From: Escherichia coli
GTDB taxonomy: Bacteria; Pseudomonadota; Gammaproteobacteria; Enterobacterales; Enterobacteriaceae
DNA length: 35,140 bases
Reading direction: 5' to 3' (one strand)
Assembly (NCBI RefSeq): GCF_003334405.1
Contig: NZ_QOWM01000027.1
Position 1 is the first letter of the stretch, and each line of letters begins with the position of its first letter. The notes beneath the pieces are model-generated. The model did no database searches. It had not been told where the DNA came from and was given only the letters and a program-made list of their open reading frames with translations. The position numbers were made by a program, and so were the translations under genes. Shown here piece after piece: positions 1,252 to 7,536 of this stretch.

Positions 1252-1255
<4 letters not shown>
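242..1255 (-). CDS. mhpE: 4-hydroxy-2-oxovalerate aldolase
   Basis: 337-aa ORF ([25 protein letters not shown]...), HMG-CoA-lyase-like aldolase fold; start overlaps mhpF stop by 4 nt; position in mhp cluster. Confidence 0.93.
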
Positions 1256-3017
<1,762 letters not shown>

Positions 3018-3884
3018 TTAAGGGCGTGCGAGGAAATTCAGCACCAGTTGATTGAAAGCGTCGGCATGTTCCCACTGCGCCCAGTGACCACAGTCGCGGA
3101 AGATATGCAGTTCAGAACCGGCAATGCCGGACAGCAGACGCAGACCCGCATCCATCGGCACAAAGCGGTCGTTGCGCCCCCAGACAATCAGGGTTTGCGC
3201 TTTGATTTCCGCCAGACGTGGGCCAAAATCCGGGAACTGTTTCGGATTAGCTTCCAGGCTCTTAACGAAGTTTTCCAGGTGATCGCGGCGCGACAGCATA
3301 TTATTCAGGCGCGCTTCAAACAGGGCGTCGGTCAAATCGCTGGTATCAAAAACGAAGATATCCATCATCAGCTTCAGGTTTTCGATAGTCGGCTGACGAT
3401 AAAGCTGATTCAGTCGCTTAATACCTTCGGTTGGCATCGGCGTAAACAAACTCATGCCGCCCGTACCGCCGCCCATCAGCACCAGTTTGCCGACGCGCTC
3501 CGGCCATTTAAGGGTGAACGCCACAGAACTATGGCCCCCCATCGAGTTGCCCAGCAGGTGGATTTTGGCGATATCCAGTTGATCCACCACGCTTTTCAGG
3601 ATTCGTGCATTAAGATCCGATCGCGAACCACTATTAACGACCGAATCGCTCTTGCCCCAACCCGGACAATCCAGCAGGATCACCCGATAGCCCGCCTCTA
3701 CCAGCGGATCGATATTGCGGCTGAAGTTCGCCCAGCCAGTAGCACCCGGGCCGGAACCATGCAGCAGGACAACGGTTTCGTCGCCTTGTCCGCAGTCATT
3801 AAAATGGATGCGCAGCGTTTTACCCGCTTCTTCTACATTCAGAAAACGGCTGGTGGCGGCTTCGGTTTGTGGCTGATAACTCAT
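3018..3884 (-). CDS. mhpC: 2-hydroxy-6-ketonona-2,4-dienedioate hydrolase (alpha/beta hydrolase)
   Basis: ORF-track entry extends to 3947; recognised protein starts [14 protein letters not shown] (288 aa) at 3884; GNSMGG nucleophile-elbow motif present. An upstream in-frame ATG (MQEKMM) is an alternative start. Confidence 0.88.
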
Positions 3885-3901
3885 CATCTTCTCCTGCATA
3901 T

Positions 3902-4846
3902 TCAGTTCTCTGTTCTGGCGCTTAACGAGCCAAATCCGGCAATCCACTCCGGGATTGGGCGGTAATAACGCCCTTCGCTACGCCAGTTGCCAAACGCAGA
4001 AATAGCGGCAAAAGCGGCGACCCAGGTTTTGATTTCATGTGTCGACTTTCCGGCAATGGCGGAAAGCTCTTCGTTACTGACGGCATCCAGTTCCTGTATG
4101 CGTCCCTGCTCCAGCAAAGTCATGAACTGGTTATCCCAAATCGGGTTGAGCGGATGCAGCGTTCTCTGATCCTCAACAAACTTCTCAGCGGCGCTAATCA
4201 CCCGTTGCTGACGCAATTCGCGCTCACTGGCGGGTAAATCTTTCCCGCTCCCCAACAGACGGTCGCGCATATGGGCATCGGCTTTCGCCAGTTCGGGCAC
4301 CGGCGGCTGATGGGAAAGCCCACCGGAACCCAGGAACAGCACGCGTTTATTGAGAGTGCTGGTGAAACGTCCAATGGCTTCACCCAACATGCGGGTACGC
4401 TGGAAACCGGGCAGCGGCGTGGCGACACCGTTGATGAACACAGGCAGAACTGGCACCTTATCCAGCCCACCGAGCAGGAACTCCAGCGGCTGGGCGAACC
4501 CGTGGTCCACCTGCATACAGTAAGAAACGGCAAGATCGATCCCGCTCTTCATGACGGCATGCGCACAGGCCTCCGCCAGCTCCACAGGCACGGGCAGCTC
4601 TCCTGCCGCACTGCCGAAATCACCAATTGCCGTCGCTCCAACGCCTAAACAGAACGGTGGCATCACGTCATAGAAAAAGCCGTTGTAGTGATCTGGCGCA
4701 AACAGCACCACCAGTTCAGGGGAGAATGCCGCAATACGCTCGCGGGCGCTGGCAATCACGCCATTGACCTCATCGAGCACCTCTTGCGCCGGGTCGACAT
4801 ACCCCACCAGCGGCGAGTGGGAAAGACAGTGAAGATAAGCGTGCAT
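3902..4846 (-). CDS. mhpB: 3-(2,3-dihydroxyphenyl)propionate 1,2-dioxygenase (extradiol)
   Basis: 314-aa ORF ([21 protein letters not shown]...); position between mhpA and mhpC. Confidence 0.93.
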
Positions 4847-4847
4847 A

Positions 4848-6512
4848 TCAGGCTACCTTTTCGACAGAAACGTCGGCATCAGGGCGGGTCAGCGTCATCA
4901 CCGACGCCAGTTTATTCAGGGTCTTGCCCAGGGTTTGCGGAATGGCGGTGGCGGCAACAAAGCGATCCGGGCGCATCACCACCAGCGAAGCATTGTGTTG
5001 CGCGAACCAGCTACGCAGGCGACCTTGCGTATCGCCCACGCGTAGTACGCCGTCGTGGTTATCCTGTGCGGTATGAATTTGCACTTCCGGCACCACCTGA
5101 ATGAAGCGTGTGCCCAACGCGCGCCACTGCTGGATTTGCTCGTCGCTCATCCCCCACAGTGGATTGCATCCCCAGCCAATTACCGCGAAGTTCGCGCCGA
5201 TCGCGTTATCGAGCAGCGTCACGTCGCCGTTTTCCAGCGTGACTTTCGGCTGAATAAACATCTTGCCGACCGGAGAGTGCTTCGCTTCGCCCTCACGCAT
5301 CAGCGCACCGCCGTAATATTGCGGCATCGGCTTGAAGCGCATTTCGAGGAAGTAGCGTTTTACTGGCGGCAGATAATTCAACAGCCAGGAAACGCCGTCA
5401 CGTAACGTACCCTGCCAGCGTTTCGGCGGAGCCAGCACGTTGCCCGCCGTCACGGACAGGTCAATCATCGCTTTGGCGTGATCGCGACGTTCTTGTTGAT
5501 AGGTATCGAGCAGCGCATCGCGGGCTTTCCCCTGGATAACCAACGCCAGTTTCCATGCGAGGTTAAAGGCGTCGCGCATACCACTGTTATAGCCCTGCCC
5601 CTGCCATACCGGCATGATGTGCGCGGCATCGCCCGCCAGCAGTACGCGATCAATACGGAAACGTTGCGCCAGTCGCGCGTTGTGGGTGTAGACACGCTGG
5701 CGAATCAATTCAACATTGTCCGGATTAGGCAGCACTTTGCTTAACAGCTTGCGCATATTTTGCGGCTCACGCAGCTGCTCTTCGGTTTCTCCCGGCATCA
5801 CCATAAATTCAAAGCGACGTACCGCATGAGGCAGCGCGGCAGAAACATACGGGCGCACCGGATCGCAACACAAATAGATATGCGGCGTACTTAACGGATC
5901 GTTGGCGATATCTACCACAATCCACTGATTTGGCGCAGTTTTACCTTCAAACGGCACATTCAGAGTGCGACGGACAAAACTTGCTCCACCGTCACAGGCT
6001 ACCAGCCACTGGGCTTTGACTATTTCCCGCTGCCCTTCTGCCGTTTTCAGGTGCAAGGTCACTTCGTCATCTTGCTGACTGAAGGCCTCCAGCTCGCGGG
6101 AAAACAAGCAGCGCACATTCGGAAAACGCGACACCCCTTCCAGCATCACCGCATCGACCTGCGGCTGAATAAAGGCGTTACGGCGCGGCCAGCCAAATTC
6201 ATCGGTCATTGGCTGAATATCAGCAAAACAGCGGCCTTTCGGGGTGAGAAAACGCATCGCGTGCCACGGCGTAGTGTGCGGCAGAACATCATCGACCAGG
6301 CCGACCGACTGCATGGTGCGCAGCGCCTCGTCATCAATACCAATCGCACGCGGGTAGTCGATCAACTTATCGAGTTTCTCCACCACCAGCACGTCAATGC
6401 CCATCTGGCCGAGATAGTTCGCCATCATCAGCCCAACCGGGCCGGCACCAGCGATCGCCACCTGAACGCTATGGTTAACAGCAGGCTGGATGTCAGGGTG
6501 TTGTATTGCCAT
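4848..6512 (-). CDS. mhpA: 3-(3-hydroxyphenyl)propionate hydroxylase (FAD-dependent monooxygenase)
   Basis: 554-aa ORF ([35 protein letters not shown]...), N-terminal FAD-binding GxGxxG. Confidence 0.93.
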
Positions 6513-6653
6513 TTCAGTACCTCACGACTCGGACAAAATGTCGTTGCGCGCACAGTACAGCGCAACTTATTTTGTTAAAAACATGTAAATGATTTTTTAT
6601 TGTGCGCTCAGTATAGGAAGGGTGTTTTCGGCTACAATCAAAACATGCCCGAA

Positions 6654-6670
6654 TGTGCACCAGGTGCACC
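6654..6670. promoter_or_regulatory. MhpR operator (17-bp palindrome) in the mhpR-mhpA divergent control region
   Basis: TGTGCACCAGGTGCACC, whose reverse complement is GGTGCACCTGGTGCACA; ~145 bp upstream of the mhpA start codon and upstream of the mhpR start at 6703. Confidence 0.6.
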
Positions 6671-6702
6671 ACGTTGTTTTAACTATAGAAATGTCAATTA
6701 AT

Positions 6703-7536
6703 ATGCAGAACAATGAGCAGACGGAATACAAAACCGTGCGCGGCTTAACCCGCGGTCTAATGTTATTAAATATGTTAAATAAACTTGATGGCGGTGCCAG
6801 CGTCGGGCTGCTGGCGGAACTCAGCGGCCTGCATCGCACCACTGTGCGGCGACTGCTGGAGACGCTGCAGGAAGAGGGATATGTCCGCCGTAGCCCCTCC
6901 GATGATAGTTTTCGACTGACCATCAAAGTGCGGCAATTAAGCGAAGGATTTCGTGACGAACAGTGGATTTCTGCACGGGCCGCCCCACTGCTGGGCGATC
7001 TGTTGCGCGAAGTGGTATGGCCGACAGATGTGTCCACGCTGGATGTTGATGCAATGGTGGTACGCGAAACCACTCACCGTTTCAGCCGCTTATCCTTTCA
7101 CCGGGCAATGGTCGGGCGACGTTTGCCGCTTCTGAAAACCGCCTCGGGCCTGACCTGGCTGGCCTTTTGCCCGGAACAAGACCGCAAGGAATTAATCGAA
7201 ATGTTAGCCTCCCGCCCCGGTGATGACTATCAACTGGCACGGGAACCGTTAAAGCTGGAAGCCATTCTGGCGCGCGCGCGCAAAGAGGGTTACGGACAGA
7301 ACTACCGCGGCTGGGATCAGGAGGAGAAGATCGCCTCTATCGCCGTACCGCTGCGCAGTGAACAACGGGTGATTGGCTGTCTGAATCTGGTGTATATGGC
7401 GAGCGCAATGACCATTGAACAGGCAGCGGAAAAGCATCTTCCGGCGCTACAACGGGTAGCAAAACAGATCGAAGAAGGGGTTGAATCGCAGGCTATTCTG
7501 GTGGCCGGAAGGCGAAGCGGCATGCATTTACGTTGA
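6703..7536 (+). CDS. mhpR: IclR-family transcriptional activator of the mhp operon
   Basis: ORF-track entry starts at 6589 (315 aa) but the recognised 277-aa protein begins MQNNEQTEYKTVRGLTRG at ATG 6703; the longer ORF would read through the MhpR operator. Confidence 0.88.
   Translation: MQNNEQTEYKTVRGLTRGLMLLNMLNKLDGGASVGLLAELSGLHRTTVRRLLETLQEEGYVRRSPSDDSFRLTIKVRQLSEGFRDEQWISARAAPLLGDLLREVVWPTDVSTLDVDAMVVRETTHRFSRLSFHRAMVGRRLPLLKTASGLTWLAFCPEQDRKELIEMLASRPGDDYQLAREPLKLEAILARARKEGYGQNYRGWDQEEKIASIAVPLRSEQRVIGCLNLVYMASAMTIEQAAEKHLPALQRVAKQIEEGVESQAILVAGRRSGMHLR

Follow-up and report, generated by a model that had tools for sequence, protein, structure and literature searches.

What occupies the 190 bp between the divergent genes mhpA and mhpR of Escherichia coli, and where does regulatory DNA end and the MhpR reading frame begin? 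An earlier note on this locus had claimed that a 17-bp palindrome at 6654..6670 matches the MhpR operator, and that its position inside the open reading frame (ORF) listed for mhpR supports a shorter, 277-aa MhpR starting at 6703. We followed up both claims in a 35,140-nt stretch of E. coli DNA, the window, whose coordinates are used throughout. In the RefSeq annotation the gene order is mhpE, mhpF, mhpD, mhpC, mhpB and mhpA on the minus strand, mhpR on the plus strand, and then lacI, lacZ, lacY and lacA; the segment 6513-6702 coincides with the 190-bp mhpA-mhpR intergenic region. Over positions 6400-6850 the window, which is E. coli K-12-like, matches a Keio-collection K-12 chromosome at 100% identity, and the region is present in 4897 of 5426 complete E. 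coli genomes (95-100% identity).

4848..6512, minus strand: mhpA, first gene of the mhpABCDFE catabolic operon, divergent from mhpR (ORF list and RefSeq)
6703..7536, plus strand: mhpR coding sequence, 277 aa plus stop, IclR-family activator (RefSeq, N-terminal peptide, ortholog alignments)

As a joint explanation of this divergent control region, we are close to certain that 6654-6670 is the known MhpR operator and that 6703 is the start of mhpR. The operator and the 277-aa start are already known biology and not a discovery.

The product of mhpR has the architecture of an IclR-family protein, with an N-terminal HTH_IclR domain and a C-terminal IclR effector domain. On the 315-aa translation, Pfam places HTH_IclR (PF09339) at 53-102 (E = 5.9e-14) and IclR_C (PF01614) at 127-294 (E = 6.6e-12), which become 15-64 and 89-256 in the numbering of the 277-aa protein. 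Over 3.7 kb, the window and the K-12 Keio record have just two base differences, 4 nt apart and both within mhpR: position 6977 is G in the window and T in K-12, and 6981 is C in the window and G in K-12. Jointly they give L92R plus one silent change in MhpR, and the exact protein of the window, WP_213058275.1, is a rare variant. An IS30 insertion splits mhpC in the Keio JW5503 assembly (NZ_CP087136.1); at the mhpC position of the window, the ORF 3018-3947 runs without interruption.

The palindrome and the MhpR operator

6654..6670, unstranded: MhpR operator, TGTGCACCAGGTGCACC, a 17-bp imperfect palindrome centred at 6662 (published motif and conservation)
6674..6680, unstranded: TTGTTTT block, 12-18 nt from the operator centre, invariant in enterics; putative element

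The operator sits between mhpR, which runs rightward from 6703, and mhpA, whose leftward frame extends up to 6512. The palindrome lies where the earlier note had put it, but its pairing is not perfect over 17 bp: the perfect inverted repeat, GTGCACC-A-GGTGCAC, spans just 15 bp (6655-6669) and leaves the outer T and C unpaired. TGTGCACCAGGTGCACC occurs once in the whole window, and in the 190-bp intergenic region no palindrome other than 6654-6670 has arms of 6 nt or longer. Of 5000 mononucleotide shuffles of that region, 136 (2.7%) produced an arm of at least 7 nt, and the whole 35-kb window holds five palindromes with arms of this length or more. The shuffles exclude a chance origin only weakly, and the palindrome alone is mildly unusual. 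A repeat search with a 10-nt minimum missed it (its arms are 7 nt), while a pattern search and our own script recovered it. The case for an operator is weighty because the motif is identical to a published one and is conserved, not because such a palindrome is rare.

The published motif is given in Table 1 of PMC8222616, which lists GGTGCACCTGGTGCACA for E. coli MhpR and attributes it to Torres et al., 2003 (J Biol Chem 278:27575). Positions 6654-6670 are the exact reverse complement of GGTGCACCTGGTGCACA, letter for letter. The comparison with published MhpR sites that the earlier note had proposed thus came out in its favor, by identity to the motif in this secondary table. The element is the same object as the Pa operator of E. 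coli K-12 (Torres et al., 2003, as cited in PMC8222616), with an identical 17-bp sequence, locus and orientation, and the control region of the window shows no difference from that of K-12. A literature search with the MhpR motif string and the promoter names found nothing further.

Conservation of the motif was assessed at 80 mhpR loci found by tblastn, one genome per species, from genera that include Escherichia, Citrobacter, Kluyvera, Edaphovirga, Shimwellia, Pluralibacter, Vibrio, Pseudomonas, Azotobacter, Marinobacterium, Zobellella, Nitrincola and Xanthobacter. Within 330 bp upstream of mhpR, 78 of the 80 loci carry GTGCAC-N3-GTGCAC (one mismatch allowed), and at 73 loci it lies within about 120 bp of the mhpR start. 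Control stretches did not contain it, either inside mhpR (0/80) or further upstream (0/78). The motif centre is usually 47-65 nt ahead of the Glu8 codon, a near-fixed distance from the mhpR start, and a divergent MhpA homolog is found at 65 of the 80 loci. Across the 78 sites, there is almost no variation at the twelve half-site positions and the middle three vary freely, while position -8 is T in 53 and position +8 is A in 57. The family consensus, T-GTGCAC-YAR-GTGCAC-A, is perfectly palindromic over its 17 bp, and the K-12 site matches it imperfectly.

An inverted repeat can also act as RNA, and in the mhpR leader the palindrome could in principle serve, together with the U-rich TTGTTTT, as a hairpin, attenuator or terminator, instead of or besides being a protein site. 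A consensus scan flags 6655-6669 plus CACGTTGTTT as terminator-like, and the T-rich block after the palindrome is conserved. However, the hairpin amounts to only -7.4 kcal/mol, with z = 0.08 relative to shuffles (z = -0.5 for the whole leader), and three or four bases intervene between the stem and the T run. The half-sites are moreover invariant without compensatory changes, as expected for recognition by a protein and not for an RNA stem, and the published footprint, via PMC8222616, attributes the site to MhpR. We rejected a hairpin or terminator role on energy and give it next to no chance of being correct; the palindrome is best read as the binding site of MhpR.

This reading places MhpR among other IclR-family regulators of aromatic catabolism (PcaU, PobR, PcaR, HmgR, GenR and others), for which a short inverted repeat likewise lies between the regulator gene and a divergent catabolic operon, and is likewise recognized by the N-terminal IclR helix-turn-helix. 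The half-site itself differs. PMC8222616 groups IclR-family operators under a GTNCG-N5-6-CGNAC-like consensus, whereas for MhpR the half-site reads GTGCAC and the spacer is 3 bp. For PcaU, PobR and HmgR there is a further external direct half-site, whereas for MhpR just the conserved TTGTTTT flank is seen.

This flank lies outside the published 17-bp motif. In the form TTG(T/A)TTT it is kept from Escherichia to Pseudomonas, and positions +12, +13, +14, +16 and +17 are T/T/G/T/T in 68-75 of the 78 loci. The operator may exceed the published 17 bp, with the block touched in addition by an MhpR tetramer or by the alpha subunit of RNA polymerase; or an assembly of MhpR and CRP in the mhpR leader may form a roadblock and so exert feedback on mhpR expression. 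We regard these proposals as speculative and rather unlikely. The MhpR/CRP assembly would fall wholly inside the mhpR leader only if the mhpR transcript starts near 6587.

Promoter elements and CRP-like sites

6610..6615, minus strand: putative -10 of Pa, TATACT; AGTATA(GGAA) is invariant in enterics and kept in Pseudomonas loci
6632..6637, minus strand: possible weak -35 of Pa, TTGTAG, with a 16-bp spacer; overlaps TACAAT (6633-6638) on the plus strand
6573..6581, plus strand: candidate Pr core, extended -10-like TGTTAAAAA; the implied start would be at about 6587-6588, at or beside ATG 6589
6536..6557, unstranded: AAATGTCGTTGCGCGCACAGTA, best CRP-like site in the region; candidate activator site of Pr
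6689..6710, unstranded: AAATGTCAATTAATATGCAGAA, weak CRP-like site centred at 6699.5, at about -95.5 from the putative Pa start; overlaps the mhpR start codon

Phylogenetic footprinting picked out two elements besides the operator, AGTATAGGAA (6610-6619) and CTACAAT.AAAA (6632-6643), which keep a fixed spacing from it from E. coli to Pseudomonas/Azotobacter. The reverse complement of AGTATAGGAA contains TATACT, and the distance between this conserved -10-like element and the operator centre is constant at 49-50 bp in enterics and Pseudomonas alike. In the putative -35 region of Pa, GCTACAATCAAAACA is invariant in enterics and CTACAATGAAAAAC is kept in Pseudomonas. With TATACT at 6610-6615, Pa would start near 6603-6604 and the operator centre would fall at about -58/-59. 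The MhpR operator reportedly lies at -58 of Pa, with which our estimate agrees. From the literature we infer that MhpR binds at 6654-6670, and from the literature and this geometry that the site occupies the -58 position. The Pa core shared by enterics and Pseudomonas/Azotobacter would imply, judging from the alignments, one ancestral mhpR-mhpA control module. A consensus sigma-70 scan of 6400-6800 returned no promoter, a result that is uninformative for activator-dependent promoters.

The rightward promoter Pr is less sharply defined. Around the candidate core, TTGTTAAAAA is invariant in Escherichia and Citrobacter, and AAATGTCGTTGCGCGCACAGTA lies 41 bp upstream of the start that TGTTAAAAA implies. 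AAATGTCGTTGCGCGCACAGTA has an approximate CRP-matrix score of 7.4 and ranks 22 of 35119 positions, in a scan in which the lac CRP site, the positive control, ranks first; 6536-6557 is not conserved in Citrobacter or Kluyvera. We also considered TGTGCGCTCAGTATAG (6598-6619) as the CRP site of Pr, and preferred 6536-6557 on account of the poor matrix score of TGTGCGCTCAGTATAG; geometry alone cannot separate the two. The candidate Pr geometry fits the Reg-Seq description of mhpRp2, in which the annotated CRP site spans -38..-59 and the -10 region is shifted to -20, and it fits the class II arrangement reported for Pr. The Cappable-seq supplement has no transcription start entries for the mhp locus in either coordinate system, and the Reg-Seq and PredCRP supplements do not mention mhpR. 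If Pr starts at about 6587, the mRNA would either lack ATG 6589 or carry it no more than 2 nt from the 5' end.

TGTTAAAAACATGTAAA (6573-6589) contains two TGT(T/A)AA repeats 11 bp apart, an arrangement that we take to resemble an ArcA box. The Reg-Seq paper describes ArcA enrichment near the -10 of mhpRp2.

On the Pa side, AAATGTCAATTAATATGCAGAA has an approximate CRP-matrix score of 0.9 and ranks 462 of 35119 positions. The CRP site of Pa is reportedly at -95.5. If 6689-6710 is that site, the mhpR ATG lies inside its right half-site. CRP sites upstream of mhpR/mhpA are listed in RegulonDB; MhpR is described as an activator of Pa that depends on 3-(3-hydroxyphenyl)propionate (3HPP) and is essential for CRP binding there, and mhpR itself as CRP-dependent (Manso 2011, as cited). 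In these accounts, Pa resembles CRP co-dependent promoters, at which a specific activator and cAMP-CRP act in synergy, in that it needs MhpR plus CRP. In contrast to such promoters, the candidate mhp CRP-like sequences are weak matches (ranks 22 and 462 of 35119). We infer from these elements and the literature where CRP binds and where Pr starts.

Together, these elements make 6513-6702 the divergent control region of the mhp cluster, which degrades 3HPP. MhpR would presumably bind the operator as a dimer or tetramer, with one GTGCAC half-site per helix-turn-helix, and with its inducer 3HPP would activate the leftward Pa of mhpABCDFE from about 58 bp upstream of the start. cAMP-CRP bound further upstream would act with MhpR at Pa. 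The operator, 41 bp before ATG 6703, at the same time sits in the upstream region of mhpR itself.

The start codon of mhpR and gene overlaps in the operon

6589..6702, plus strand: spurious 38-codon extension of mhpR; non-coding regulatory DNA that carries the operator and the mhpA promoter core (ORF list, stops, substitutions)
6691..6693, plus strand: second in-frame ATG, 4 codons before 6703; probably not used, the codon not being kept outside enterics

The ORF list gives mhpR as 6589..7536, starting with ATG and encoding 315 aa. ATG 6703 is in the same frame, 38 codons after ATG 6589, and yields 277 aa. The operator does lie inside the ORF-list version, as the earlier note had observed, within the 6589..6702 extension. 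In RefSeq/PGAP, mhpR starts at 6703, both in K-12 and in a divergent strain. The N-terminal mapping that the earlier note had suggested as a check is found in an E. coli N-terminomics study of 2026 (PMC13245402), where the entry for b0346 mhpR (Table S1, row 72) is the peptide MQNNEQTEYKTVR, initiator Met included. The translation initiation site (TIS) given there, NC_000913:368418-368420, is supported by INRI-seq and REPARATION, carries no Shine-Dalgarno (SD) proxy and is the sole row for mhpR. It corresponds to window 6703-6705, and its 60-nt context is identical to window 6673-6732. The residue preceding the Met of MQNNEQTEYKTVR in the 315-aa form is Asn, and therefore this peptide end is not a tryptic product. 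The detected N-terminus demonstrates that 6703 is used; it says nothing on 6589 or 6691 never being used.

Relatives of E. coli point the same way. In tblastn searches, alignments of orthologs out to Pseudomonas and Vibrio begin at residue 1 of the 277-aa form, and upstream of the 6703 Met the frame meets a stop after 0-13 codons in most Citrobacter, Kluyvera, Edaphovirga and many Pseudomonas. That in-frame stop is, for many Citrobacter, a TAA at the operator centre. The codon matching ATG 6589 is ATA or ATT (Ile) in Escherichia sp. E1V33 and several Citrobacter. In eleven Escherichia and Citrobacter comparisons, substitutions at codon positions 1/2/3 number 60/45/47 in 6589-6702, a non-coding pattern, and 206/76/1008 in mhpR proper.

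Ribosome-binding signals are of no help. The earlier note had looked to an inspection of the DNA upstream of 6703, but this does not discriminate among the candidate starts: pairing with the anti-SD sequence is absent within 20 nt of 6703, 6691 and 6589, and 6622 likewise has no usable SD. Sequence alone gives no SD preference for 6703. The missing SD is no argument against 6703 either, because SD-less starts are common in the N-terminomics data set (192/806; PMC13245402). Local RNA structure is weakest around 6703, at -5.7 kcal/mol compared to -8.2 to -9.8 kcal/mol at the other candidate starts.

Two further starts have to be weighed against 6703. In E. coli the frame is open from ATG 6589, and this ATG is present in most strains, so that an N-terminally extended 315-aa proteoform could also be made there, perhaps, given a Pr start at about 6587, from an almost leaderless mRNA; the candidate Pr geometry would place the ATG 1-2 nt from the 5' end. 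The 315-aa form is annotated in many GenBank records, and a rare species could escape proteomics. Yet the ATG and the open frame are lost in the relatives described above, the substitutions show no coding pattern, no SD is present, and the sole listed N-terminus is 6703. The extension would moreover add 38 residues before a helix-turn-helix that is already at 15-64 of the 277-aa form, and would cross both the operator and the Pa core. We consider such a proteoform highly improbable. Translation that starts, or also starts, at the in-frame ATG 6691 would give 281 aa beginning MSINMQNN, with the N-terminal peptide MSINMQNNEQTEYK. This codon is ATG in Escherichia, C. sedlakii and some Kluyvera and TTG in most Citrobacter, and it is as SD-less as 6703. 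The detected N-terminus, MQNNEQ, nevertheless keeps its initiator Met and follows Asn, which is not a tryptic site, and Table S1 of PMC13245402 has no N-terminus at 6691. A 281-aa version is absent from a collection of 15 billion protein sequences; at this position a stop, or the lack of a start codon, is seen in Edaphovirga, some Kluyvera and most Pseudomonas; and the conservation of TGTCA is equally explicable as a CRP half-site. We give initiation at 6691 just as little credence, and retain 6703 as the start of mhpR.

The shorter, 277-aa MhpR proposed by the earlier note is thus borne out by RefSeq, by the N-terminus MQNNEQTEYKTVR, by upstream stops and loss of the ATG in relatives, and by the non-coding substitution pattern. 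The 315-codon ORF from ATG 6589 is open by accident over regulatory DNA, and the 277-aa protein is what the cell makes. Over-extension is generic behavior of an ORF lister that takes the first start: lacI, mhpC and mhpD are over-extended too. The ORF list and the annotation differ for lacI in the start (GTG 7604 versus 7613), and for mhpC (3018-3947) and mhpD (2199-3014) in length (309 versus about 288 aa and 271 versus 269 aa, respectively).

The earlier note had also described 4-nt ATGA overlaps within the operon, at mhpF/mhpE and mhpD/mhpF, as suggestive of translational coupling. Both overlaps are real.

2199..2202, minus strand: mhpD/mhpF ATGA overlap; mhpF ATG at 2202-2200, mhpD TGA at 2201-2199, AAGGA 7 nt upstream
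1252..1255, minus strand: mhpF/mhpE ATGA overlap; mhpE ATG at 1255-1253, mhpF TGA at 1254-1252, AGGAG-like sequence 8 nt upstream

Each pair has the structure of coupled genes, with overlapping stop and start codons and an SD-like sequence inside the upstream gene, and translational coupling at both overlaps is plausible on this arrangement.

Annotation of mhpR and MhpR-controlled promoters

Public protein databases hold 315-, 304- and 277-aa versions of MhpR in one 90% cluster of 5956 members. The 315-aa version is common in GenBank records, and curated RefSeq and UniProt entries have 277 aa. The 315-aa and 304-aa versions in many public E. coli records are wrong. The pattern is that of other over-extended E. 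coli start annotations, which were fixed by comparative and N-terminal evidence while the longest-ORF form lingered in records. Compared to those cases, the mhpR extension crosses a well-characterised operator, so the error is easily spotted.

The importance of this correction is slight beyond annotation hygiene, and the mhp control region has already been worked out as a case in which an IclR-type activator acts alongside CRP. The 80-locus motif, T-GTGCAC-YAR-GTGCAC-A, together with its fixed spacing to the TATACT -10, provides a cleaner tool for finding MhpR-controlled promoters in other gamma-proteobacteria.
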